From Thermoplasmata archaeon (GTDB taxonomy: Archaea; Thermoplasmatota; Thermoplasmata; Lutacidiplasmatales; UBA184): 64,000 nucleotides of DNA. Position 1 is the first letter of the stretch, and each line of letters starts with the position of its first letter. Below the pieces are notes generated by a model. That model was not told where the DNA came from, did no database searches, and saw only the letters and a program-made list of their open reading frames with translations. Of this stretch, positions 1 through 41,752 are shown piece by piece. The stretch covers positions 27,288 through 91,287 of the forward strand of contig JBAUYF010000007.1 of the NCBI GenBank assembly GCA_049584655.1. The letters run 5' to 3'. The translations under genes and the position numbers were made by a program.

Positions 1-174
1 TTCTTCCCGATGGTGCCAATAATTGATCCCAACGTTCGCCCCGAGGGCGGCCAATCGCAAGACAATCGCTCGACCAATCCCCGTCGCCCCACCCGTCACT
101 AGCCCCGACCGACCCGCGAGCGGCTCCGGCCCCACCCAATCGACGGTTCCGGTGGGCTTAGTCTTCACGGGCAT
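1..174 (-). CDS. Short-chain dehydrogenase/reductase, N-terminal fragment only; the gene runs off the left edge of the window
   Basis: Reverse-strand translation from ATG (plus-strand cat at 172-174) gives MPVKTKPTGTVDWVGPEPLAGRSGLVTGGATGIGRAIVLRLAALGANVGINY. The TGxxxGIG Rossmann motif is typical of SDRs. The ORF is not in the supplied track because it is partial. Confidence 0.5.
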   Translation of the reverse strand, partial: MPVKTKPTGTVDWVGPEPLAGRSGLVTGGATGIGRAIVLRLAALGANVGINYWHHREE

Positions 175-202
175 GACTCCCGTGTTCTTCTTCTGTTCGG
201 GG

Positions 203-216
203 TAAAAAAACGCACG
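203..216 (-). terminator. Oligo-T tract on the minus strand (plus strand reads ggggtaaaaaaacgc); possible archaeal terminator downstream of the small membrane ORF 278..463
   Basis: A run of 7 T on the transcribed strand lies just 3' of a minus-strand ORF. Archaeal termination commonly uses oligo-T. Confidence 0.3.
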
Positions 217-277
217 GCGGAGTCGCGAAGGGGCGCGCGCTCGCTCCACCGGCTGCGGGAATAACTTGCGCGGTGAA

Positions 278-1259: not shown

Positions 1260-2000
1260 GTGCCGAACGACGCGTACCTTGACGCGAGTGTACACTGGAA
1301 AGTTCGATCCGGAAACGCGACCCTGCATGAACAGCGCTACTCGGAGGTCGTCGAGTCGATACTCGATACGGGACTGGCCACTTCGGTGGTGCAGCAGATC
1401 GGTTCTGGAAAGGAAGCTGGCGTCTTCGCATGTCTGAACGGGCCGCATTTGATCGCCGTCAAGGCGTATCGCTTCTACCAGTCGAGCCACCGAGGGGGTC
1501 GACCGATCAAGCAGGAATCGATGGGCCGTCTCGCGTTGGAAGAGTTGGCGCTCTTGACGCAGGCGTGGACCGGAGGCGCCCGCGTGCCCCGCCCCGGTCG
1601 TCGCGTGGAGAACATGTTCTCGATGCAGTATCTTGGGTCGGTCGAGGGGCCCGCTCCCCGGCTCAACGACGTCGCCCTCGAGGCTCCGGAGGAGTTTCTC
1701 GCCGAGTTATTGGCCAGTACGCGCAAGCTCGCCGACGCGGGCGTGGTCCACTCCGATCTGAGTCCCTTCAACATCCTCGTTCACGACGGGCTCCCCTGGT
1801 TCATCGATCTGGGCCAATGCGTACGGGTGGATCGAGTCGGTACGTCCCCGTGGATCCGGTTGACGGAGGCCGGAGACGCGCTGCGAAGCGGATTCAAGAC
1901 GTTCGACCGCTATTTCCGGAAATATGATCTCCGTGTGGATGTCGAAGCAGAGGTAGCGGCTATCGTGACGAAACTCGATCGTTTCGGCGTCCTGCGCTAA
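1260..2000 (+). CDS. RIO-type atypical serine protein kinase (short form); GTG start
   Basis: GSGKEAGVF P-loop-like motif, catalytic HSDLSPFNILV and DLGQ motifs. Roughly 45 aa precede the P-loop, and no wHTH domain is present. Confidence 0.75.
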   Translation: MPNDAYLDASVHWKVRSGNATLHEQRYSEVVESILDTGLATSVVQQIGSGKEAGVFACLNGPHLIAVKAYRFYQSSHRGGRPIKQESMGRLALEELALLTQAWTGGARVPRPGRRVENMFSMQYLGSVEGPAPRLNDVALEAPEEFLAELLASTRKLADAGVVHSDLSPFNILVHDGLPWFIDLGQCVRVDRVGTSPWIRLTEAGDALRSGFKTFDRYFRKYDLRVDVEAEVAAIVTKLDRFGVLR

Positions 2001-2046: not shown

Positions 2047-3429
2047 CTACCACCGAGCTCCCGGACTATCGCGACCGGAACTAACTCGGTCGTAGGACTC
2101 CACCGCACGAGCGAAGATCTCGCGTAGGCGCGGGGCCGCACGTTTGACGTGGCAGATGCGGGCCGTATGGTAGCCGGCCTCTCCCATACGTCGGGCGCGC
2201 TCCGGCTGGCTGAGGAGCGTCGCCATGCTCGTCACGAGCGCGCGTACGGAGCCCGGTCGCACGGCGTATCCGTTGAAGTCGTCATTGACGAGTTCCGCCA
2301 CCCCGGCCCCTTGGCTGACGACGACCGGGAGTCGATGCATCCATGCCTCAATGACCACGAGACCGAATCCTTCCCACGGGGCCGGATGGACGAAGAGACT
2401 TGCCCCCTCGTAGGCCGCCCGGAGGTCCTCATTCGAAACGTTCCCCGTGAGGATCACCGATTTCTCGAGCTTGAGATCTCGAATCTGCACGCGCAAGCGT
2501 TGCAGCCAGGCGTCTGACTTCGTCGGCTCGTTGATCTTCGATGCTTGCCGCGAGGAGAAACTCTCCCCCCCTACGAGTACCAAGCGATGGTCCGGAAATC
2601 GATCCCGAAGTTGGGCGAAGGCGGCGATGACCAAGTCGTGGCGTTTCACGGGATCCATGCGGCCGACGCATAGCGTGTACGGAGCGTGCCCGACCCCGCT
2701 CCGTGCTCGAAACTCCGCGATCGCCCGGTCGGAAGCGGGGCGATTCTCGTTCGGATCAATATACGGATAGACTTGGAACGCTCGTCCATGGAATCCGTGC
2801 CGGATCAATTCCTCGAGGCCCGCGCGGGTGCTCACGACGATGGCGTCAAATCCCTCCATCGACCGAAGGAAGAATCGACGCACGGGCTCCGGATAACCCC
2901 GAAATTCGAGGGGAATGTGCCAACGCATGAGCGCGGGTGAGGCCGACCCGATCATGCCGCCGACGAGGATCTGCTGAAAGTCGTTCACATAGAACAGGTC
3001 GTAGTCGTTCATGTGATGGAGCAAGTGCTGCGCGGTACGGTGGTTGTACTCCACGAAAGCCTGGTACTCTTCGGGGCGGAACGGTTCGAGTCCCCGGGGA
3101 CCATGAAAGGAACGCCAGACGGCTTCCTTGAACGAATTGTAGCGCTCGCGGAGATCGGCTTCGAGCGGAACGGTTTCAACGGTGTATCCTTCGTCGATCG
3201 TGAACTCCGTCGGAAGGTCCGGCCCTTGCTGCACGACCCACCGAGGATTGGGTGCAATCCAGTGGCCTAAGCCAGTCCGCAATAAGGATCGCATCATTGG
3301 AACCACCCCGCCCACGTTCGGAATGTAGTCGCGCCCGACCTTCCAGGGCCCCCGACGTGGCGGCGAGCGCCCACCGATTGGTTGGATCGGCGGCGTTTGC
3401 GAACTGATACAAATTCTGAGCATTCTCAC
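2047..3429 (-). CDS. GT4-family glycosyltransferase resembling trehalose glycosyltransferring synthase (TreT)
   Basis: GGV..M..L, WHIPL, YIDPN, VGRMDPVKRHD...LVLVGG and EGFGLVVIEAW...G motifs match GT4/TreT-type enzymes as I remember them. Start is GTG at 3429 or ATG at 3423. Confidence 0.7.
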   Translation of the reverse strand: MRMLRICISSQTPPIQPIGGRSPPRRGPWKVGRDYIPNVGGVVPMMRSLLRTGLGHWIAPNPRWVVQQGPDLPTEFTIDEGYTVETVPLEADLRERYNSFKEAVWRSFHGPRGLEPFRPEEYQAFVEYNHRTAQHLLHHMNDYDLFYVNDFQQILVGGMIGSASPALMRWHIPLEFRGYPEPVRRFFLRSMEGFDAIVVSTRAGLEELIRHGFHGRAFQVYPYIDPNENRPASDRAIAEFRARSGVGHAPYTLCVGRMDPVKRHDLVIAAFAQLRDRFPDHRLVLVGGESFSSRQASKINEPTKSDAWLQRLRVQIRDLKLEKSVILTGNVSNEDLRAAYEGASLFVHPAPWEGFGLVVIEAWMHRLPVVVSQGAGVAELVNDDFNGYAVRPGSVRALVTSMATLLSQPERARRMGEAGYHTARICHVKRAAPRLREIFARAVESYDRVSSGRDSPGARW

Positions 3430-4082: not shown

Positions 4083-4138
4083 TTATCCTAAGCCGAACGG
4101 AGCGGAGTCCCCTAGCCTACGTGGCCGGGCGAGTCCGT

Positions 4139-4714
4139 TCAGAGAGCCAAATACAGGAAGTACGCCGCGAACGCCAGAAGGAAACCTGTCGCGACAACCA
4201 CGACGGTCGATTCGAGCTGTGGGCGCGACTGCACCCCCCGATGGACCGCCGTCGGGAAGACGACGATCCAGACTGCGATGGCAGAGAAGAGACCTACGAA
4301 CAGGACCAACCCTCCCAGAAAAGCGAAGGCGAGCCCAGCGGTGAGCCACCAAAGAATTTGAAACGGATTTCCGATGCCCAGTAACAACGCTTGCGCGTAA
4401 ACTCGGATGCTCGACGGGGTGGCTCCGGCGGGACCCCGCCTCGATCGGAGCAGCAGGATGGCGTACAGCGTCATGACGCAGGCTCCCGACAGGTAGACGA
4501 CCCGAATCTCGGCCGTCAGGCTGACGGAGGATCGGAGCAGAAAGACGACAGCTCCGAGTACGGCGTCGGCGCTCATGGCACCCGCTCCCGCTACCACGCC
4601 GTTGCGTAAGGACCGAACGGCCTGGCTCGAGATGAAGGCATTCATGGGACCCGGCGGGATCGTCAGGGAAAAGCCGAGGGCGAGCCCGAGCAGCAGGAAG
4701 TAACTCGTCTGCAA
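4139..4714 (-). CDS. LysE/RhtB-family amino-acid exporter
   Basis: 191 aa with six hydrophobic segments. The N-terminal LLLGLALGFSLTIPPGPMN motif is characteristic of LysE-type translocators. Confidence 0.7.
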   Translation of the reverse strand: MQTSYFLLLGLALGFSLTIPPGPMNAFISSQAVRSLRNGVVAGAGAMSADAVLGAVVFLLRSSVSLTAEIRVVYLSGACVMTLYAILLLRSRRGPAGATPSSIRVYAQALLLGIGNPFQILWWLTAGLAFAFLGGLVLFVGLFSAIAVWIVVFPTAVHRGVQSRPQLESTVVVVATGFLLAFAAYFLYLAL

Positions 4715-4794
4715 TGGTCTCCTCCGTCGTCGGCGAGATTATTTCACCGGGAGAATTCCCGCATCGGTCGGCTGACTCGGGATGGGGATGCGGT

Positions 4795-5571
4795 TTAGGT
4801 TCCGAACGTTCGGGTGACGCGAACAGTTCCTGCCAATACGAAGGCGGGCGCCAACAACGCGAGGACCGGCGCCGCGAGCAGCAAGTATTGCGCTCCCTCG
4901 AAGGGGGTAAAAAGGAAAATGAAGGGTCCGACCAGAACCAAAAGTAGGATCGCATAGAGCGCGCCCCCGCCAGAAAGAGCCGGTTGACCGTATCGGGCGG
5001 CGCTCAGAATCAAACCCGCCACAATACCCACGGCGCCTATCCAACCCAACCAGAAACCAATGAGTGCGATCGAGGCGCCGATGGGCTGCGTAGATTTGAG
5101 ACAGGAGTAGATGTGCCCCGGTTGACCTCGTAGGCACGAAACCATGCTATTCGCCGAGCCGAGCACGATGGCGGCGACAATGACGATGAGGAGGAACCCG
5201 ATGGATCCGATCAAACAGAGTATCGAGGCAACGCGAAATCCCCCCGACACCTTTCGGAGGGCCGAAAAGGCCCGTCGATACTCGAAGAGGGATACGAGGA
5301 AAAGCAGAGCTCCGGCGAGCAGGGCGATACTGACGACATCGATGAGCGAGTTGCCGTAGGTGAAGAATCCACCCGGCTCGTACGTGCTAAGCCAGAGGAA
5401 CGTTACCGGGAGAACGAACAATGCGATCGCTGCTGCCAATCCCAGACCGGCCCCGGTCCCGAGGCGCCGAACTCCTCGTTGGTCTTCCTTCAAGATCAGG
5501 TGGCTTGCGATCATATTGTCATGCTGGAGGGAGCTCCCCGGACCAGGGCGCGGGAGAGTCAGAGAGCCCAA
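4795..5571 (-). CDS. Integral membrane protein of unknown function (7-8 TM)
   Basis: 258-aa hydrophobic ORF with normal composition. It is divergent from 5817..6740. Confidence 0.55.
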   Translation of the reverse strand: MGSLTLPRPGPGSSLQHDNMIASHLILKEDQRGVRRLGTGAGLGLAAAIALFVLPVTFLWLSTYEPGGFFTYGNSLIDVVSIALLAGALLFLVSLFEYRRAFSALRKVSGGFRVASILCLIGSIGFLLIVIVAAIVLGSANSMVSCLRGQPGHIYSCLKSTQPIGASIALIGFWLGWIGAVGIVAGLILSAARYGQPALSGGGALYAILLLVLVGPFIFLFTPFEGAQYLLLAAPVLALLAPAFVLAGTVRVTRTFGT

Positions 5572-5816: not shown

Positions 5817-6740
5817 ATGTTCAATGTGGAAGTAGTCGTCGCGCTCGCGATTCTCGCCGGGCTAATGGCCGGCGGGAACTCCTACATCTTTGTACAGTTC
5901 TTCCCCCGTCGGGGGGGGACCCCCAATTTGGGCCGGGCGATCCTCGTAGCGGGGCTGCTCGGTTCGTCCCTTTGCGTCTGGCTTGCGGTGATGTGGGCCG
6001 TCGTGGTACCCAGCTTCGGAGCTTGGCTCGCGGTCTTCCTCGGTATGAATTCCATGATGGTGGCGGTTGGCGTCTGGTTCGTCGCCATCTTCCTTCGCGC
6101 AGAAGAAAGGATGGTGCCTTCCGGGAGCTGGGGTTGGGCGGCAACGTTGTCCCTCTTGGTGATCGGGAATGAACTATTCATGGGAACATCGTTCGTCGGA
6201 GCCGTGGGAGGTCCCGGCGCTCTCTTGGCGGGATCCACTCCGACCCTGATCTCGGGATTCACGGCGTCCGTCAACTCGTTGTGGTTCTTCTGGGCGATGC
6301 TCGCAAATCTGACCTGGCTCGTCCTCTGGCTCCCCCTCGCTCGGAACGAAAAGGAGGCGTTGCTTGGTCTGAGCTCCGTAACGATCGTAGGCCCCTGGGT
6401 GCTTTGGAGCCCGTTCTGGGGACCGCTGGCCCTCCTCCTAGTGGTAGTGATGGTGGCCCTTCTCGTACTTCGATCGTACCGCGCCACGACCCAACCCACT
6501 GTCCGCTACTCCAGGATCGTGACTGGGTCGATTGCGGGGCTGGTGACCGTCGCGGGGGGCGCGACCATTGCCGGGCTGACTGCTGATTCTCCATTCGGAT
6601 CCCTCGCGTGGGCATCGGCTGCCTTCTTCGTTCTCTTCTTCCAACTCCTGTTCTTGTCTCAGTCGGCGTTGAAGCATACGACGCCGGCCGCGGCCAGCAC
6701 CTCCCTACCACTCACGGCACCTAGCGCCGCCTCCGAGTGA
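5817..6740 (+). CDS. Integral membrane protein of unknown function
   Basis: 307 aa with about 8 predicted TM helices. No recognised family. Confidence 0.55.
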   Translation: MFNVEVVVALAILAGLMAGGNSYIFVQFFPRRGGTPNLGRAILVAGLLGSSLCVWLAVMWAVVVPSFGAWLAVFLGMNSMMVAVGVWFVAIFLRAEERMVPSGSWGWAATLSLLVIGNELFMGTSFVGAVGGPGALLAGSTPTLISGFTASVNSLWFFWAMLANLTWLVLWLPLARNEKEALLGLSSVTIVGPWVLWSPFWGPLALLLVVVMVALLVLRSYRATTQPTVRYSRIVTGSIAGLVTVAGGATIAGLTADSPFGSLAWASAAFFVLFFQLLFLSQSALKHTTPAAASTSLPLTAPSAASE

Positions 6741-6839
6741 AAGCGAGTCGAGGGCGTCGAGAGCTGAGTGCTCCCGTTTGGCGAACCCACCGCCGATAAC
6801 GGGATCGAGCTCCTGCCCAGGCGGATGTAATGAGGGTCG

Positions 6840-7550
6840 GTGGCTCCTACCTATGGAAGTTCAATGCCGGCCTCATGTCCCGATTGCGGTGCCCAGGTGG
6901 AGTACGTCTCCGAGCCGGCACGCCTCCTCTCCGGCACCTGCGGGTCCTGCCATCACGAATTCACGATTGTGGGGGGTCACCTCGACGTCAAGCCCGCACC
7001 GGATGCCCGGTCTCGGGCGGAGGTCGGCGCCGAGGGGCCAGCGGCTCCGCAAGGGCCGACCTGCCCAGATTGCGGCGCCCCGACCGCGTTGAGGGTGACC
7101 TCCTCGCGTTCGATTGAGTCGGTCTGCTCCGACTGCGACTCGACGCGTATGTTCGTTCTATCGGACGGAAGTCGACCACCTGCGCGCGAGCCCCGATCCG
7201 ATCGGGGTTGGCGCGATGACGGGGATCGTCGAGCGCCTTCGGCCAGTCGTCCCTGCCGGCAATGCGGCGCCCCGCTGACTTTCACCACGGGTGAAGACGG
7301 GCTGTTGACGGGAGAATGCACCCAGTGCGGGAACCGGTTTACGCTCCCCGCACGCCGTGACTCAGGGGGCCCGCGCAACGATCGCCGCGAGCGCCCGTCA
7401 TTCGGACGCAGCCGTCCCTCCGGATATTCCGGGGGTCGGAACTTCTCCCGCGGCTCGGGGCGACCTCCATCCTACGAGCGAAGGGGCCGACGGAACGATT
7501 CGTCGGACGATGCGGAGGCGCCTCGCCGTCGGCGGCCGCGGCGCGAGTAG
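6840..7550 (+). CDS. Triple zinc-ribbon protein with an RG/RGG-rich C-terminal tail
   Basis: Three tandem CxxCGA-x15-20-CxxC-x3-F(T/V)(I/L) modules: CPDCGA..CGSCHHEFTIV, CPDCGA..CSDCDSTRMFVL and CRQCGA..CTQCGNRFTLP. The tail reads RSRPSGYSGGRNFSRGSGRPPSYERRGRR. Confidence 0.65.
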   Translation: MAPTYGSSMPASCPDCGAQVEYVSEPARLLSGTCGSCHHEFTIVGGHLDVKPAPDARSRAEVGAEGPAAPQGPTCPDCGAPTALRVTSSRSIESVCSDCDSTRMFVLSDGSRPPAREPRSDRGWRDDGDRRAPSASRPCRQCGAPLTFTTGEDGLLTGECTQCGNRFTLPARRDSGGPRNDRRERPSFGRSRPSGYSGGRNFSRGSGRPPSYERRGRRNDSSDDAEAPRRRRPRRE

Positions 7551-7660: not shown

Positions 7661-8566
7661 CTAAGTGAATTCTTCCCGAGCGAAGAAATAGAGACCCGCC
7701 AGCGCCGTGAGCACGAAGTACCCCGCCATGATGATTAGCCCCTCTAGGTAGGTGGGCGCGTACGTCGTGACGGTCGTCGTTCGGCCCCGCGGGCCGGTCA
7801 TGGTGGAGGTCGACACGTGCGCCGGTAGGGTGGAAAGGAAGGGATACGTGATCACCTGCTGGGCATACGTGATGATGAACCACGGTTCGATCTTCACGAG
7901 CACGGTGATTAGTTCTTCGATGATCGAGAATCCGAACAAGAACAAGACGGCGACGACGAGGACGGCGTAGAGGCTGTTCTTGAACATGGAACTAAAGAGA
8001 AAGACAGCGCCGAGCAGGGCGAGCAGGTAGAGCACCGCGATGGCGAAGGATTCGAAGAGCGCTACGGGAAACGCATTCACCCCGAGGTAGACGGCTCCGT
8101 TCGCGAGGAGGATCGCGAGATAGACTACCACGGCAACCAGGGAGGCGATCAGAGCCGCGAGGAACTTGCCCACATAGACGCTGTCGCGACGGATCGGGAG
8201 GCCCATCAGGAAGTATCCGGTCTTGTTCTGGAACTCCCCTGCGATCGCGTCCCCGCCGAAGATGATCCCGGCGAAGATGATCACGACCGTCACCCCGCCG
8301 CCCCAGAACGACCCATAGAAGGCATCGGAACTCGCGGTCAACCCCGACACCGTGGAGGAGCCATGGAAGTACGCCAGTACGAACGAAATGATGGCACCGA
8401 TCGCCGCCACGATTGCCATCATCAGCACGAACCGACGGGATCGGAGATAGTCCCTGAGTTGGTACCGAGAGAGGATCAGGGCCTGCGTCAGCGTGTCGGG
8501 AACTGAACCGATCGCCCCGTCCCCTCGAGGCGCGTTGGCGATCGCCGTAGCCGACGGAGTGCTCAT
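7661..8566 (-). CDS. ABC-2 family transporter permease
   Basis: 301 aa with six TM segments. The start overlaps the stop of the upstream ATPase gene (ATGA at 8563-8566), suggesting an operon. Confidence 0.7.
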   Translation of the reverse strand: MSTPSATAIANAPRGDGAIGSVPDTLTQALILSRYQLRDYLRSRRFVLMMAIVAAIGAIISFVLAYFHGSSTVSGLTASSDAFYGSFWGGGVTVVIIFAGIIFGGDAIAGEFQNKTGYFLMGLPIRRDSVYVGKFLAALIASLVAVVVYLAILLANGAVYLGVNAFPVALFESFAIAVLYLLALLGAVFLFSSMFKNSLYAVLVVAVLFLFGFSIIEELITVLVKIEPWFIITYAQQVITYPFLSTLPAHVSTSTMTGPRGRTTTVTTYAPTYLEGLIIMAGYFVLTALAGLYFFAREEFT

Positions 8567-9510
8567 GCGTCCCCCACCGAGATCTCACGCAAGTAGACCT
8601 CCTCCAGCGCCGATCGCGATTCGCGGAAACTGAGAAGCCCGAGATGGAGCGCTGCGATCTTTTCGAGCAGTACGCTCTGCTCGGCCCGTCCCCCTTTGAC
8701 TTGCAACGAGATCCGTTGAGAAGCGACGCGCGTGACGCCGGCCACCTCTGGCAGCCCGGCGATCGTGCCGTTTAGGACCGCGTCGTCTATGGGGGCAGCG
8801 AACTCGGCCTCGACCGATTGGACCCCGCCGCCTAGACGTCGCGTGACGTTCTCCAGGGAGTCGGCGAAGAGTAACTTCCCATGGTCGATGAGCGCTACGT
8901 CGTCACAGACGTCGACAACTTCGCTGAGGATATGACTGCTCATGAAGATCAGACGATGACCCTTCTTGAGACCACGAACGATGTCGCGGACCTCCGCCAT
9001 TCCCCGAGGGTCGAGCCCAGTGCTCGGCTCATCGAGGATTACGACCTCGGGGTCCGAAAGGAGCGCCGCGGCGATGTTGACGCGCTGTTTCATGCCCTTG
9101 GAGAAGCGGCCCACTTTGTGGGTGGCCCATTCTGACATCTTCACTTCCTCCAAGACGATAGCCGTCCGAGAGCGGATCTCCTCCGGCCGCATCCCGCGCA
9201 GGGCGCCGCTCATCTCGAGAGCCTCCCGGGGGGAGAGCGACGGGTAGATCTCGGGGGTTTCCACCAAGTCGCCGCAGGACGCGAGGGCCCGTCGACGATC
9301 CGCTTGGACGGATACACCGTTGATGAAGGCCTCCCCTTCGGTCGGAAAAATCAGGTCCGTGAACATCTTGAGGGTGGTGGTCTTTCCCGCCCCGTTCGGC
9401 CCTAGGAATCCCATACATCGGGCTCCTTCGACCTTCAGATTGAGATGGTCTAGCGCCGTGAACGCGCCGAACCGCTTGGTCAGATCTATCGCTTGAACGC
9501 TCGGTGACAT
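8563..9510 (-). CDS. ABC transporter ATP-binding protein
   Basis: Walker A GPNGAGKTT, signature LSGGMRQRV-like (FSKGMKQRVNIAAAL), and Walker B ILDEPSTGLD. The probable start is MSPSVQAIDLTKRFG (ATG, cat at 9508-9510). Confidence 0.85.
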   Translation of the reverse strand: MSPSVQAIDLTKRFGAFTALDHLNLKVEGARCMGFLGPNGAGKTTTLKMFTDLIFPTEGEAFINGVSVQADRRRALASCGDLVETPEIYPSLSPREALEMSGALRGMRPEEIRSRTAIVLEEVKMSEWATHKVGRFSKGMKQRVNIAAALLSDPEVVILDEPSTGLDPRGMAEVRDIVRGLKKGHRLIFMSSHILSEVVDVCDDVALIDHGKLLFADSLENVTRRLGGGVQSVEAEFAAPIDDAVLNGTIAGLPEVAGVTRVASQRISLQVKGGRAEQSVLLEKIAALHLGLLSFRESRSALEEVYLREISVGDA

Positions 9511-9699
9511 AGTAGCCCAGTCGCGGGGGTTGGGTCCCGGGAGTTGAAAAGCGTAGCTGCCTATGCGCAGCGCAACCCCGCACGAAGCGCTACTCGCGGG
9601 GCACAAATTCCTCCCGGATCACGATTCCTGGACCACCAGTCGAAATAGCCCATCGCGTCAACCGCCGCGAGCTACGGTTGGCGGTCTTGTCCGAAAAGT

Positions 9700-10350: not shown

Positions 10351-11670
10351 TTATACGTCATGGGCGCGCGACGGAGAGTCAGATCTGACTTTCTGGGCCT
10401 CCGCCGGGGTCGTGATACCTCCGGATGCGGCCGCGATCGCAGCGGAGGTAACATACGAAAGGACGAAAATGGTCGCCATCACCGTAACGATCCCGAGAAG
10501 CTCTACCCCCATCTGCTGAACGGCTGAAATCCCACCCCCGAAGAAGAGGCCATTTGGTAGGTTCGGGAACCCCGACCCTTGGGCGAAAGCATGCTGCGCG
10601 AACAGGGGAATCATGAGAATGCCGAACAGTCCACCGACCAAGTGACCCGGAATCAGGCCGACGGGGTCTGAAAACCATCGGACTCGTGAGACCAGGACCT
10701 CCGCGTAAACAAAGATCGGGCCGCACACCAATCCCAGTATCAGGGCGCTCGCGGGCGATACGAAGCCCGCAAGTGGGGTGATGACGATGAGCCCCATAAG
10801 AGTTCCATTGACGGCCCAGGGGAGGTCCGCTGAGCCGCCCCGGCGGAAGAACTGGACCGCCAATACAGATACCATCCCGGCGGCCGCTGCGATGAAGGTC
10901 GTCAGAACGACTACGATCGCTTCCGAATTGAACTGTAGGACGCTCCCCGGATTGAAGCCAAACCATCCAACCCAGAGAAGAAGGATCGATAGGGCGAGCC
11001 ACCCCGGACGGATAGACAATGGCGTTTGCGGGGAGGTAGTATAGCCTCGAGCTCTCTCTTCTCGCCAGACTTGGGCGAGGATGCCCAGGCCAGCGGCGCC
11101 GGCGGCCCCATGAACGACGAGGCCACCCGCAAAATCAACCATACCGATTTTGGCGAGCCATCCCGTCGGATTCCAGATCCAGGCCGCGGGGATCGTCCAA
11201 ATGATCCCAAAGTAGACCACCGAGTAGATCGCGAACGAGGTCAGCTTGACCTTACGCAACACGACGACGCCTACGAGCGCCAGAGTTACGGATGCGAATG
11301 CCGTTTCGAAGAGGAAGTAGGTCCCCATCGCCAGCCCGGTGCCGAAGTAGGCCGGCTGCATCGACCACCAAGGCGTATCGAAAGCGTTCGAGTAGTTCGG
11401 AGAGAATCCTCCCAGGAGGAGCCCGGGACTGTACACAGGGTTTCCGATGAGCCCCGACAGGGTGGGGGCGAACCCGAGGTTGAACCCCACGATCGCCATG
11501 ACGACGAGGGCGAGCCCGCTCATCAGCAGAGTTTTGAGCAGACTTCGGTCCAAGGATTCCCCTAGCTCACCGACCTCGAGGAAGCCGACCGCAAGGGTCA
11601 TGCAGAAGACCAGGAGCGCCGCGATGAGAACCCAGAGATTGTTGTCTAGGTAGGTCGGGTCGAATAACAT
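10351..11670 (-). CDS. amt: Ammonium transporter (Amt/MEP family)
   Basis: About 440 aa with 11 TM segments and Amt motifs (DFAGG..VH..AG..GL..A). The start is MLFDPTYLDNNLW (ATG, cat at 11668-11670). Confidence 0.85.
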   Translation of the reverse strand: MLFDPTYLDNNLWVLIAALLVFCMTLAVGFLEVGELGESLDRSLLKTLLMSGLALVVMAIVGFNLGFAPTLSGLIGNPVYSPGLLLGGFSPNYSNAFDTPWWSMQPAYFGTGLAMGTYFLFETAFASVTLALVGVVVLRKVKLTSFAIYSVVYFGIIWTIPAAWIWNPTGWLAKIGMVDFAGGLVVHGAAGAAGLGILAQVWREERARGYTTSPQTPLSIRPGWLALSILLLWVGWFGFNPGSVLQFNSEAIVVVLTTFIAAAAGMVSVLAVQFFRRGGSADLPWAVNGTLMGLIVITPLAGFVSPASALILGLVCGPIFVYAEVLVSRVRWFSDPVGLIPGHLVGGLFGILMIPLFAQHAFAQGSGFPNLPNGLFFGGGISAVQQMGVELLGIVTVMATIFVLSYVTSAAIAAASGGITTPAEAQKVRSDSPSRAHDV

Positions 11671-11835
11671 CGTTGGATTCCTTGTTCTCGTCGGCTCGAA
11701 GACCGATCCGGGTCCAGACGCCCCGTGAAACACCGAATCGTCCCCTTTTTGAGCCCTCGCTTCGAGGCGAGGGGCCGCACTGCGGCTCTAAGGTTCCGGA
11801 CTGCGGAGCTCGCCGGGGAAAAATATCGGGCCGGC

Positions 11836-12494: not shown

Positions 12495-13421
12495 CTATAG
12501 CGTGAAATGCGACGTCCGCAGCGATTCGATCTGGTCCGAGATGATGGGCCGACCGAGCCGATCGCGAATTCGCCGACGCTGCCGACGCCGCTGCGCGCGT
12601 ACTGCGGCCGTCCAGGCGGCGACGTCAGGCGCGTCCCGTTCGGGTCGAATCCATTGGATCACCTGATCCAGGTCGTGGAGCTTCCCCAAGTCCCGCTGCA
12701 GTCGGACGAGCTGCTCCTGCGCGTCTACGGGACGAGATGTAGCGAGGGCTTCGCGGAAGAGCCGCATTTCGCGGAGCTCCTTGCGCAAGTCATGCAATCG
12801 AGGGGTCGATACGCGGGCGACGGCTCGGTCGAGCGATCGGGAGACCTCGTCCACGCGTCGGAGGAACTCGGCCTCTGTTTGCAGCATCCAGGACCGCGGG
12901 TCCGAGGCTTCGTGTGCTTCGCGGACCAGACCCCGCAACGCGGCGAACGTCTGATCGTCCGTCAGCGCTTGCGCGAACTTGGCCAGCTTGCGTCGACCGG
13001 CGCGAGCCTCCTTCCTAAGTCGCCCGCGCGCGTTCTGAATGCCCTCGGGGCCGATCGATCGCGAATTTCGAGGGGCTGACGGCAGAACCGAAAGACCGAC
13101 ATCCCGATCACGCACTTGCCCGCACAGTCGAGCAAACGTGTTCACCCGCGCCTGGACCTCCTTCGCGAGCTTTCGCGATTCCGGCGAAATTGAGGCACGC
13201 CAGGGGCGGAACAAGACTGACAGGCGACGCAGGTCCCGGTGCAACACGTGGAGCGGCTCCTCGCCAATGGTGGGACGGATGGCCAATGCCGCCACGCGGG
13301 ACTCGATCGACCCGACCAACGATTCGTACCGTTGGAAGGCGCGTTCTTGATCGTCCGCAGGAATCATGGGAGTTCGCCGACCCCTTTCCCTTTCATTTAA
13401 CTTGCTCTCGAGACTTCTCAA
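12495..13421 (-). CDS. CHAD-domain protein
   Basis: Repeated LHxLRxxxRRLRxxLxxF helical motifs (LHVLHRDLRRLSVLF, LHDLRKELREMRLFREAL, LQRDLGKLHDL) typical of CHAD. The true start is probably the internal MIPADDQ. Confidence 0.6.
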   Translation of the reverse strand: MRSLESKLNERERGRRTPMIPADDQERAFQRYESLVGSIESRVAALAIRPTIGEEPLHVLHRDLRRLSVLFRPWRASISPESRKLAKEVQARVNTFARLCGQVRDRDVGLSVLPSAPRNSRSIGPEGIQNARGRLRKEARAGRRKLAKFAQALTDDQTFAALRGLVREAHEASDPRSWMLQTEAEFLRRVDEVSRSLDRAVARVSTPRLHDLRKELREMRLFREALATSRPVDAQEQLVRLQRDLGKLHDLDQVIQWIRPERDAPDVAAWTAAVRAQRRRQRRRIRDRLGRPIISDQIESLRTSHFTL

Positions 13422-39347: not shown

Positions 39348-39889
39348 TCGCGGCCCTCCCGAACAAGGTACAGCGCGCCGCTCAAGGCCGCGAGCATGAC
39401 CAGGCCCAGCAGGATGAGCCACGCGCCATTCGCATTGAACAGGTTGGCGGAGAGAAGGGTGGGGTCGTAGGTCTGGATCGACGTCGAGGATTGCGGAAGC
39501 TCGCTCAGTACCGAGCCGACCATGATGACCACGAGCACGGCGAGCGCGACGGGGATCGGGCCGATGCCCGTCGCCGCATCGCGGGAGAAGATCCGTTTAC
39601 GCGTGACCATCACCCCGAAGAGAAGGAGAATCGTGACGGCGCCCGCGTAGACGCCAAGTTGGAGTACTCCGAGGAAAGGCGCCTCGAGGAGGAAGTAGAT
39701 CGCCGAGAGATCGATGAAGAAGAGCGCGACCCAGAGGATGGTGTGCACAAGCTCGCGGACGAGCAGCGCCAAGATGGCCGTGACGACGGCGACGACGCCG
39801 AGCGCGGCGAATGCCACCAGCTCCAGGTTCACGAGTGAGTCCCCCAGAAGAGACACTCCTTGGGGCAGACCGAAATGCACGTACCGCAT
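39344..39889 (-). CDS. nuoJ: NADH-quinone oxidoreductase subunit J
   Basis: Hydrophobic and about 170 aa. The true start is probably about 18 codons downstream of the track start. Confidence 0.75.
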   Translation of the reverse strand: MRYVHFGLPQGVSLLGDSLVNLELVAFAALGVVAVVTAILALLVRELVHTILWVALFFIDLSAIYFLLEAPFLGVLQLGVYAGAVTILLLFGVMVTRKRIFSRDAATGIGPIPVALAVLVVIMVGSVLSELPQSSTSIQTYDPTLLSANLFNANGAWLILLGLVMLAALSGALYLVREGRE

Positions 39890-40632
39890 CGGACGCAGTC
39901 GGAGTCGTTGATGACCGGCTCCTTCCAGATTCGCTTCGTTTGCTTTTCACCGGGCTTCGGCTCCGGCTTCGGGATGTCGAGCATCGTGATGCACTGTGTC
40001 GGGCAGTCCCGCGAGCACGCGTTGCAGCCGATGCAGAGGGGGGGGTCGAGCAGGATGGCGTCCTCGTTGGCCGGACGCTCCAAGCGGATCGGGTTCATGG
40101 GCAGCTTGCGCTCGAAGATCTCGAACATCTTTTGCGGCGTGTAGACCATCTCCGAGCGCCGCGTCACGGAGAGTTCGTACTTCGTGGTCATCGTGAGGCA
40201 GCCCTCGGGGCACGCGTCGGAGCAGAACCCGCAGTAGCTGCATTTTCCGTAGTCGATCTGCGGGCACTTTTTCGGGTGCTTGGGGTCGCCGCCCGGGACC
40301 GAGACCATCTCGATGCAAATGTCCGGACAACTGAAGGCACAGAGGTTGCACGAGATGCAGGTGTTGATGTTCAGGGCGTGCACCCCGCGATAATTGTCCC
40401 ACACCTGCCCGACGCCGAACGGCTTCCCCGAGGCAACGCGCAATTCGTCCCGGAATTTCGGATCTTCGAGCCGCTCGAACGGATAGACGATCGTCGACGG
40501 GCGGATGAGGCTCTTCGCAAACTGCCGGGCGGCGGTGGCCAGCGGTTTGACAACGTAGAGGATCGGGTTGTCGTCGCTCGCCGTTTTCTGGGTGCTGTTG
40601 GTTGCCATGTGCTCCGTTCCTTTAGCCACCAA
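39829..40632 (-). CDS. nuoI: NADH-quinone oxidoreductase subunit I with four 4Fe-4S ferredoxin motifs
   Basis: CISCNLCAFSCP, CSYCGFCSDACP, CIGCNACSRDCP and CVRCGTCISVCP. This is twice the usual two clusters. Confidence 0.8.
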   Translation of the reverse strand: MVAKGTEHMATNSTQKTASDDNPILYVVKPLATAARQFAKSLIRPSTIVYPFERLEDPKFRDELRVASGKPFGVGQVWDNYRGVHALNINTCISCNLCAFSCPDICIEMVSVPGGDPKHPKKCPQIDYGKCSYCGFCSDACPEGCLTMTTKYELSVTRRSEMVYTPQKMFEIFERKLPMNPIRLERPANEDAILLDPPLCIGCNACSRDCPTQCITMLDIPKPEPKPGEKQTKRIWKEPVINDSDCVRCGTCISVCPKECLFWGTHS

Positions 40633-41752
40633 TGCTCGGGACGCAACCGAATACGGGTAGGCATTTCACGAGGACTACGACGGCCGCGAGAACGACGCTG
40701 AGGAGGGCCAGTGGGATCATTCGGTTCCACCCCACGCGCAAGAGCTGGTCGGTGCGCACGCGCGGCAACGAGGCCCGGATCCAGACGAAGACGCCAAACA
40801 CGGCGTAGGTTTTGATCATGAACCAGAAGATGCCCGCGAGGGGAAAGTTGGTGAGCGCGCTCGGGACGTACGACGGGAGCGTCCATCCGCCGAGAAACAA
40901 CAGGACGACGAGGATGCTCCCGACGAGGGCGCGGAGGTAATCCGCGAGCATGAAGAACGCGAAGAGCATGCCCCCGTACTCGGTGTTCCAGCCCTCGACA
41001 AGCTCAGCTTCGGCCTCCGGTAGGTCGAAGGGAATGCGTTCCATCTCGGCGAGCATTCCGGCGACGAAGACGATCAGGGCGATGAAGAGGGGTCCCCAGA
41101 ACCAGTAATTCTGTTGTTCGAGCACGATCGTGTTCAGATCGAAGCTCCCGGCAAGCACGATCACGGCGACGACGGCCAGAAGCAGCGGCACCTCGTAGGC
41201 GATCATCTGCGCCGCCGAGCGCATGCCGCCCATGAGCGAGTACTTGTTGTTGCTCGACCACGCACTGATGAAAATGAAGAGGGGAGCGAACGAGAAGATC
41301 GCCAACGCGAGGAGCAAGCTCAGCGGGAGCGCCCCACTGTTCCATCCGGTCGAAATCGGGAGGACGCCAAAGATCACGAGCGACGTGACCATGTAGGCCG
41401 TGGGTCCCGAGAAGAAACCGAGAGCGTCGGCCTCGCGCGGCTTGAACGTCTGCTTATGGAACAACTTGAGCCCGTCCGCAAAATTCTGCAACAGGCCGGC
41501 GTAGCCGACATGCATCGCGCCCCGCCGGTCCATGAAGCGGCCCAAGAGCTTGCGTTCCCACCAGATGAGCAGGATCGTGTTGAGCATGCTGGCGGCGAGC
41601 AGGATCGCGGCAAAGATCAGGACCGCGATCGTGAGAATCAAACCGCTGTTCGTGATCCAGTCGCTGAGTGGGGCCGGGAGCACGGAGCCGAGGGCATGGA
41701 AGAGGGTGTTCGAGAGGAAGAACGCCACCGAAAACAACGAATCAGAGGTCAT
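40622..41752 (-). CDS. nuoH: NADH-quinone oxidoreductase subunit H
   Basis: 376 aa with 8 TM segments. NuoH/ND1 motifs are present (WERKLLGRFMDRRG, GYAGLLQNFADGLK). Confidence 0.85.
   Translation of the reverse strand: MTSDSLFSVAFFLSNTLFHALGSVLPAPLSDWITNSGLILTIAVLIFAAILLAASMLNTILLIWWERKLLGRFMDRRGAMHVGYAGLLQNFADGLKLFHKQTFKPREADALGFFSGPTAYMVTSLVIFGVLPISTGWNSGALPLSLLLALAIFSFAPLFIFISAWSSNNKYSLMGGMRSAAQMIAYEVPLLLAVVAVIVLAGSFDLNTIVLEQQNYWFWGPLFIALIVFVAGMLAEMERIPFDLPEAEAELVEGWNTEYGGMLFAFFMLADYLRALVGSILVVLLFLGGWTLPSYVPSALTNFPLAGIFWFMIKTYAVFGVFVWIRASLPRVRTDQLLRVGWNRMIPLALLSVVLAAVVVLVKCLPVFGCVPSIGG

Follow-up and report, generated by a model that had tools for sequence, protein, structure and literature searches.

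We analyzed a 64,000-nucleotide stretch from a Thermoplasmata archaeon of the Lutacidiplasmatales (assembly GCA_049584655.1, contig JBAUYF010000007.1, positions 27,288 to 91,287 of the forward strand), hereafter called the window, and focus here on a gene near its left end that encodes a protein with three predicted zinc ribbons followed by a basic, disordered tail. The underlying open reading frame (ORF) lies on the forward strand at 6840-7550, comprises 236 aa when counted from a GTG codon at 6840, and ends with a TAG stop at 7548-7550; all residue numbers below refer to this 236-aa frame. Although the frame is present as outlined in the first-pass annotation of this DNA, translation probably starts further downstream, at the ATG in position 6864 (MPASCPDCG), which would give a 228-aa protein. 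Four observations point to this start. Most homologues begin with M-x-x-x-CPxCG, public collections store the 228-aa form, and the eight codons upstream of the ATG show no conservation at the protein level, reading VAPTYGSS in the window, VAPAGGSA in the closest orthologue (L001), and VAGARRWK in another relative (L002). Finally, there is a family-wide AT-rich peak at -36 to -32 of the ATG. When 70 family loci were aligned on this codon, the AT content at these positions was 0.60-0.80, compared with a background of about 0.25-0.3, which is what a TATA box followed by a short leader would produce in archaea. In the window, the motif TAATGAG, which lies within a block (TAATGAGGGTCGGTGGCT) common to the window, L001, and L002, is therefore a candidate TATA-like promoter element (Table 1). 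A scan for bacterial sigma-70 promoters found nothing at this site, a terminator scan returned weak candidates only, and Rfam and tRNA scans of the window were both empty.

The frame is a real gene under purifying selection. The window protein and its L001 orthologue are 84% identical, and their genes differ by 95.7 synonymous and 37.3 non-synonymous changes, with a synonymous divergence (dS) of 0.87 and an overall ratio of non-synonymous to synonymous divergence (dN/dS) of 0.09. Values for the individual segments are listed in Table 1. Codon-level evidence matters because the window has a GC content of 62% and dozens of its out-of-frame shadow ORFs reach at least 50% Arg plus Gly over 40 aa. 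Since Arg/Gly richness alone means little in such DNA, selection and conservation together are the decisive test. The opposite explanation, which had been raised at first pass, is that the ORF is a chance or shadow frame, the Arg/Gly-rich translation of which mirrors the base composition of GC-rich DNA. It can draw on the many out-of-frame ORFs with similarly biased translations, on the unusually high GC content of the second codon position (0.68), and on an overlapping antisense ORF that also seems "conserved" in 43 loci. We nevertheless consider it extremely improbable, because besides the low dN/dS, all 12 Cys and ~20 further positions are invariant across proteins that are just 40% identical, the GC content at third codon positions (GC3) is 0.71 and resembles that of neighboring real genes (0.75-0.82), the distance between the promoter-like element and the start is fixed, and the same protein was called independently in JGI and Logan assemblies. 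An artefactual ORF is thus excluded by selection and by the conserved Cys and other positions.

Two observations on overlapping or aberrant frames belong here. The antisense ORF (6977-7378, reverse strand), together with ORFs at the equivalent sites in 43 related loci, forms the second largest cluster in our neighborhood analysis; this ORF merely shadows the GC-rich coding strand, which is under constraint, and does not count as evidence for a second gene. In addition, the closest long-contig homologue, P0004 (279 aa, L002:6500-6900), has an aberrant C terminus (RRCSAATSAAPRITARS), and a different frame of this L002 DNA encodes the canonical one (DDASDEDDAPRRRRPRRE). P0004 was therefore rejected as a variant architecture and is regarded as a frameshifted copy, in which the shift is due to a recent mutation or to faulty assembly.

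As for the modules, the analysis strengthens the first-pass prediction of three CxxCGA...CxxC units. Module 1 (CPDCGAQ...CGSCHHEFTIV; unit CPDCGAQVEYVSEPARLLSGTCGSCHHEFTIV) has Cys residues in positions 13, 16, 34, and 37, module 2 (CPDCGAP...CSDCDSTRMFVL; unit CPDCGAPTALRVTSSRSIESVCSDCDSTRMFVL) in positions 75, 78, 96, and 99, and module 3 (CRQCGAP...CTQCGNRFTLP; unit CRQCGAPLTFTTGEDGLLTGECTQCGNRFTLP) in positions 139, 142, 160, and 163. The spacing is C-x2-C-x17-C-x2-C in all three, and the first Cys residues of successive modules are 62 and 64 residues apart. The 17/17/17 spacers are found in 179 of 196 complete family members, and all 12 Cys are conserved in the family (alignments A1 and A2). 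When the modules were compared with each other by profile-profile alignment with hhalign, every pair aligned without gaps at 97% probability. Considering this together with the identical spacing, internal triplication, which had been proposed from the spacing alone, is the simplest origin of the protein.

The AlphaFold model consists of three separate β zinc ribbons on disordered linkers, for which the per-residue confidence, or predicted local distance difference test (pLDDT), is given in Table 1. In the predicted structure, two CxxC knuckles are located at β-hairpin turns and the strands form a three-stranded antiparallel sheet, as in the zinc ribbon fold, and the modules would accordingly bind zinc. 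In ribbon 2, the invariant residues are C75, C78, G79, C96, and C99. Ribbon 3, the best-conserved segment of the whole protein, carries the signature RPCRQCGAPLxFTTxxxGxLTGECxxCGNRFTLPxRR, with invariant R137, P138, C139, R140, C142, G143, L146, F148, T150, G154, G158, and C160 in its first part, and C163, G164, N165, R166, F167, L169, P170, and R172 in its second. Linker 1 is mildly acidic in the window copy and a poly-Asp/Glu stretch in a distant branch of the family, in which linker 2 is RGG-rich. The net charges of the segments (Table 1) make the protein a charge dipole, with an acidic N-terminal half and a strongly basic C-terminal half, which consists of linker 2, ribbon 3, and the tail of 60-70 residues.

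The tail is the second distinctive part of the protein. Its last 66 residues include 21 Arg, 10 Ser, 9 Gly, 7 Pro, 9 Asp plus Glu, 2 Tyr, and 2 Phe, and the aromatic residues of the tail body (F188, Y196, F202, and Y212) are spaced. The first-pass annotation had described this region as rich in RG, SG, and Tyr and had quoted a string (GRSRPSGYSGGRNFSRGSGRPPSYERRGRR) that is indeed found at residues 189-218, although there are only two Tyr residues. Across the family, tails have a median length of 68 aa and a median composition of 30% Arg, 24% Gly, 7.6% aromatic residues, and 15% Asp/Glu, and are nearly devoid of Lys and aliphatic residues. The order of their elements is conserved, with an RG-rich/aromatic body followed by an acidic patch and a terminal RRRRPRRE. 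The terminal basic cluster is found in 113 of 118 homologues, and the acidic patch, just before it and within the final 35 residues, in 98 of 118. The most frequent ending is RRRRPRRE (43 tails), three Arg positions of the terminal motif are at least 90% conserved in alignment A2, and the frameshifted L002 copy still encodes the motif in the other frame. The aromatic residues are kept apart from each other: adjacent aromatic pairs number 3 in the family tails versus 76 expected from shuffled sequences, the median minimum gap between aromatics is 6 versus 2.6 in shuffles, and 95% of tails have a more regular spacing than the shuffle mean, all of this scored on related sequences, so that the counts are not independent. 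With a dN/dS of 0.056, this "low-complexity" tail is as constrained as the folded parts, and its conserved order, end motif, and low dN/dS argue that it is functional. Its layout is of the sticker-and-spacer type known from RG/RGG and prion-like regions of eukaryotes.

Whether the tail deserves to be called an RGG box, as first proposed, depends on the family member considered. The definitions of Thandapani et al. 2013 are said to comprise tri-RGG, di-RGG, tri-RG, and di-RG motifs, that is, RGG or RG repeats 0-4 residues apart. The window protein falls into none of these classes, while the 196 family tails include 1 with tri-RGG, 36 with di-RGG, 43 with tri-RG, and 113 with di-RG. The term therefore suits the composition of the family, and the distant branch in particular, and not the window copy, in which no canonical motif is present.

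The family to which the protein belongs is sizeable. A word-seeded HMMER search retrieved 159 homologues, nearly all of 220-260 aa, and a profile search of 1.84 billion cluster representatives (50% identity) gave 254 matches at E ≤ 1e-3, including 113 at E ≤ 1e-30; the strong matches have the same length and architecture as the window protein. When one genome per GTDB species was scanned, relatives were found in 129 species. The best 80, each from a different genome bin, are all from metagenome-assembled genomes (MAGs) labeled "Thermoplasmata archaeon," except for one "bacterium," and the gene is single-copy in each genome seen. The exception, L010 (DAIDCO010000014.1, "MAG TPA_asm: bacterium isolate clean3188"), is a typical family member with 44% identity, and its bin is probably mislabeled or chimeric. 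No relative was found on IMG/VR viral contigs. Lutacidiplasmatales, the former TMEG group of acidic soils, include the carrier MAGs AcS5-107, AcS5-116, SubAcS13-24, SubAcS13-64, SubAcS15-31, and UBA184 (PMC9287336). Judging from these searches, the family is lineage-wide, conserved, uncharacterized, and restricted to soil/sediment Thermoplasmata/Thermoplasmatota. Its members are named either "hypothetical protein" or, by weak automatic assignment, RpoM/TFIIS, RpoP, Topo I zinc finger, or LSD1. A distant branch (P0216, P0219, P0220, P0222, and P0225), from MAGs labeled "Euryarchaeota" or "Thermoplasmatota," keeps the three-ribbon plan with a long poly-Asp/Glu tract as linker 1, and has genuine RGG/GGY repeats in linker 2 and in the tail, which ends with RRRRRRFRDE. 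These tails, for example GGGYGRGRGGGGGGGRYSRGGGGGRFGGGG, resemble the glycine/arginine-rich (GAR) domain and FUS, and fall within the RGG/RG definitions given above.

The gene appears to be a stand-alone unit, since it has its own promoter-like element and no conserved neighbors. When stop-to-stop ORFs from 80 GTDB loci and the window were clustered all-against-all, no conserved gene neighbor or operon partner emerged. The sole widely shared "neighbor" (43 loci) is the antisense shadow ORF over the gene itself, and the next clusters, each in 22 loci at most, correspond to an ABC ATPase, LysE-like, MFS, and small membrane proteins, and an OB-fold protein. The called-gene tables of four homologues likewise show unrelated contexts. 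The gene order of the window (Table 1) is common to close relatives only, more distant members having unrelated surroundings. In one relative, L081, a 308-aa ORF without Pfam match lies directly upstream of the zinc-ribbon gene, in the position of window 5817-6740, and is itself preceded by an ORF with a weak DUF973 match. A RIO-type kinase, from a family of ribosome-biogenesis factors, lies ~5 kb upstream of the gene in the window, an arrangement kept in L081; because it is missing in distant family loci, it implies no link to the zinc-ribbon gene. Much further away, a coding-like ORF of ~267-278 aa with four CxxC motifs and a GC3 of 0.85 (39832-40665, reverse strand) possibly encodes an Fe-S or zinc protein unrelated to the zinc-ribbon gene.

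Table 1. Zinc-ribbon gene, its segments, and its neighbors in the window (dN/dS, comparison with L001; net charge, family median)
Feature	Position	Strand	Residues	dN/dS	Net charge	Remarks
TATA-like AT-rich element TAATGAG	6826-6832	+				32-38 nt 5' of ATG 6864; putative
First eight codons of GTG-started ORF	6840-6863	+				probably untranslated leader or promoter-proximal DNA
Coding sequence, triple zinc-ribbon protein (probable start)	6864-7550	+				228 aa plus stop; from ORF listing, dN/dS, homologues
Zinc ribbon 1	6867-6977	+	10-46	0.045	-2	conserved Cys; strands 28-33, 40-45; pLDDT about 68-81
Linker 1	6978-7052	+	47-71	0.23 (highest among segments)	-3, down to -27	disordered, variable; pLDDT <50 at 49-68
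Zinc ribbon 2	7053-7163	+	72-108	0.15	-3	strands 71-74, 81-88, 91-96, 102-106; pLDDT 80-87
Linker 2	7164-7244	+	109-135	0.16	+2	disordered, Arg/Asp/Pro-rich; pLDDT <50 at 111-135
Zinc ribbon 3 and basic flanks	7245-7358	+	136-173	0 (16 synonymous, 0 non-synonymous)	+1	strands 146-150, 156-160, 166-169; pLDDT 81-83
Tail as a whole				0.056	+11	
Tail body	7359-7493	+	174-218			disordered, basic, Arg/Gly/Ser/Pro; pLDDT 40-50
Acidic/serine patch NDSSDDAEA	7494-7520	+	219-227			visible in alignment A1
C-terminal basic motif PRRRRPRRE	7521-7547	+	228-236			
RIO-type kinase	1260-2000	+				
GT4 glycosyltransferase	2047-3429	-				
Membrane protein	4083-4955	-				predicted multi-pass; no Pfam match at E ≤ 1e-3
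Membrane protein	4795-5571	-				predicted multi-pass; no Pfam match at E ≤ 1e-3
Membrane protein	5817-6740	+				predicted multi-pass; no Pfam match at E ≤ 1e-3
ABC-2 transporter pair	7661-9606	-				
Ammonium transporter	10351-11733	-				
CHAD protein	12495-13421	-				

The best-supported reading of this architecture, to which we assign a probability of roughly 0.55, is that the protein binds RNA or single-stranded nucleic acid in a multivalent manner. It would be a soluble, stand-alone, zinc-dependent "beads-on-a-string" protein, with three Cys4 ribbons derived by internal triplication. Ribbon 3, with invariant Arg/Asn/Thr residues round both knuckles, and the Arg/Gly tail, with its spaced Tyr/Phe/Trp, would together form a multivalent binding surface. 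Ribbon 1, linker 1, and ribbon 2, which make up the acidic half, might fold back on the basic half and tune binding or, alternatively, recruit a basic partner protein, while the acidic patch and the terminal RRRRPRRE would act as a short conserved interaction (docking or regulatory) motif. Such a protein could serve as an RNA chaperone, a ribonucleoprotein scaffold, or a factor coating single-stranded nucleic acid, possibly co-condensing with RNA. Among the low-complexity domains of eukaryotes, the GR-rich class has the most consistent link to RNA binding (PMC11132505), and a net positive charge and Tyr/Phe residues beside Arg/Gly promote RNA-dependent condensation of RG/RGG peptides (bioRxiv 10.64898/2026.01.26.701751). 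The zinc ribbons and RGG box of type IA topoisomerases, described below, lend further support of this kind. It is only by analogy that we infer nucleic-acid binding, the type of ligand, and condensate behavior for the window protein. Several points weigh against this reading. Zinc ribbons are used for contacts between proteins as well, ribbons 1 and 2 are acidic, and the genomic context yields no functional hint. The window protein contains no RGG tripeptide, and the regular spacing of aromatics was, as mentioned above, scored on related sequences. Moreover, the carrier loci are all GC-rich (0.61-0.74; no low-GC carrier was found), so that a mutational bias favoring Arg/Gly/Pro/Ala codons may have shaped the composition of the tail.

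The acidic segments also fit a different role, which we consider unlikely, namely that of a mainly protein-binding adaptor or ribosome-associated factor. The ribbons would then dock on protein partners and the tail would thread into rRNA like Stm1/SERBP1-like hibernation factors or, alternatively, would solubilize or escort clients that are basic or acidic, in the manner of nucleolin or nucleoplasmin. Apart from the acidity of ribbons 1 and 2 and of linker 1, this role is favored by the poly-Asp/Glu linker 1 of the distant branch, which is typical of chaperones for basic proteins, by the resemblance of the conserved acidic patch and RRRRPRRE to a short linear docking motif, and by the presence of LysW, a zinc-ribbon carrier protein, among weak PDB matches (E 0.037-0.058). 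However, no conserved partner gene adjoins, neither ribosomal proteins nor known hibernation factors showed significant similarity, and ribbon 3, where conservation is strongest, is basic and Arg-flanked, which suits nucleic acid better than protein.

Another alternative is that the protein is a chromatin protein or transcription factor binding double-stranded DNA. RNA polymerase, TBP/TFB, or DNA would then be the targets of the ribbons, as in TFB, TFS, Elf1, or NrdR, and the Arg-rich tail would be a DNA-condensing tail of the histone H1 or protamine type. We view this as improbable too. In comparisons with known families, a specific TFIIB-like relationship, which the first-pass annotation had listed as something to check, is not supported, the TFIIB/TFB model Zn_Ribbon_TF (PF08271) giving an E value of 1.4 and 8.9 bits versus a cut-off of 29; there are no TFIIB cyclin domains, and the rest of the protein is disordered. 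The TFIIS/TFS/RpoM model (PF01096) scores 10.7 bits versus a cut-off of 21 (E 0.5), and RpoM-2 in the PDB (7oqy_Y) reaches an E value of 0.075 only; the JGI names RpoM/TFIIS given to homologues thus reflect weak ribbon similarity. The LysW and Elf1 models are far below threshold.

The only Pfam model that passes is DZR (PF12773), with 29.4 bits versus a gathering threshold of 27.3 (E 8.9e-07, three stretches), which is a generic two-ribbon model without functional meaning. DUF7351 (PF24042), the precomputed label on most homologues, where it is flagged "faint," scores 31.1 bits versus a cut-off of 31.2. Since this match is limited to positions 3-32 of a 177-position profile and recurs once per ribbon, it is a zinc-ribbon echo and no sign of membership. 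PDB sequence searches with full-length and ribbon-3-only profiles returned nothing significant. The top full-length match, MccA (E 1.5e-4), was rejected as spurious, as it is a multihaem cytochrome matched via its CxxCH motifs. The best match of the ribbon 3 profile, 2nb9, is marginal (E 0.018 over GPDGRVVRCASCGNRWT, half a module); it was deposited as "Uncharacterized protein," and we take it to be an MJ0042-type zinc ribbon (ZitP). The best match in PADLOC has an E value of 0.86, and that in PHROG (E 0.001) concerns the zinc ribbon only, in an entry of unknown function. In the literature searched, we found no paper mentioning DUF7351 and none on an archaeal zinc-ribbon plus RGG protein.

What would RNA or single-stranded nucleic acid binding by this family mean? 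Arg/Gly-rich disordered tails with spaced aromatics are a hallmark of eukaryotic RNA-binding, condensate-forming proteins, and a conserved, evenly patterned RG/aromatic tail is unusual in an archaeon. Compared with eukaryotes, archaea have fewer low-complexity domains of every class, and the occupancy of G-rich ones is low in archaea (PMC11132505). The design as such, tandem zinc ribbons plus a basic disordered tail, is known, the family is Thermoplasmatota-specific and resides in a group of soil archaea that is uncultured, and no new mechanism has been shown yet. Our results supply a family definition that is missing from Pfam, and correct the weak names RpoM/TFIIS, RpoP, and Topo I zinc finger. 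If the protein binds or condenses with RNA, it would be an archaeal equivalent of RGG proteins that arose by convergence, and also a candidate for a core RNA or nucleoid factor in Lutacidiplasmatales and related Thermoplasmata; otherwise, it would be one more lineage-specific zinc-ribbon protein. A bolder proposal, which strikes us as distinctly unlikely, is that the family represents an independent archaeal invention of the eukaryotic combination of a folded RNA-binding module with an RG/aromatic sticker-spacer tail (as in FET proteins, nucleolin, and the fibrillarin GAR domain), and acts as an abundant Thermoplasmatota scaffold undergoing RNA-dependent condensation. The acidic N-terminal half would then tune condensation, and the acidic patch and RRRRPRRE end would be a regulatory or docking switch. 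Were this true, RGG-type condensates and their origin could be studied in a prokaryotic system that has neither histones nor a nucleus.

Four known systems share part of this design. Type IA topoisomerases (E. coli Topo I D5-D7 and human TOP3B) also have tandem Cys4 ribbons followed by a basic/RGG element. In E. coli topoisomerase I, three such ribbons in tandem bind single-stranded DNA (ssDNA), while the RGG box of TOP3B is required for RNA and DNA activity (PMC10969213). Some homologues are named "ssDNA-binding Zn-ribbon topoisomerase 1" by JGI. However, the family has no topoisomerase core or catalytic domain, the Topo I C4 ribbon model (Zn_ribbon_Top1, PF01396) gives 9.5 bits versus a cut-off of 32 (E 1.1), and the second knuckle, which is non-canonical in Topo I ribbons, is a plain CxxC in the window family, as is the first. 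We therefore regard the likeness as an analogy of design, with no homology.

In FET proteins (FUS/EWS/TAF15) and ZRANB2, a RanBP2-type zinc-ribbon finger is flanked by RGG or RS regions, which serve single-stranded RNA binding and RNA-dependent condensation. Like the window family, these proteins pair a small module of zinc-ribbon fold with Arg/Gly regions and spaced Tyr/Phe. The RanBP2 finger has a spacer of about 10 residues, in contrast to the 17-residue spacers of the window family, which has three ribbons, lacks an RNA recognition motif and a prion-like domain, and is archaeal only, its window copy being without RGG tripeptides. No zf-RanBP match at E ≤ 10 is among the Pfam matches listed (the best 25 of 30).

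Haloarchaeal CPxCG zinc-finger proteins, such as Brz (PDB 8q5b), are archaeal as well and have CPxCG-type first knuckles. Brz of Halobacterium regulates bop transcription (PMC2253796), and the mechanism of most small haloarchaeal CPxCG proteins is unknown. Unlike the window family, they are 50-70 aa long, have one or two fingers, lack a basic tail, and come from a different lineage, and the E value of the match to 8q5b is only 0.12. Finally, distant matches of our own searches (P0230, 620 aa; P0237; P0238; P0240, 715 aa; and P0245) have 3-7 tandem CPxCG...CPxC ribbons with poly-acidic, Ala/Pro/Glu, or Lys-rich linkers, and one protein of this kind has an N-terminal membrane or extracellular region. 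With similar ribbons and charged linkers, P0230, P0237, P0238, and P0240 resemble the window family, from which such repeat proteins differ in having neither the RG tail nor the RPCRxCG...CGNRFTLPPRR signature. These multi-ribbon proteins suggest that tandem zinc-ribbon "beads" are a recurrent, little-studied architecture.

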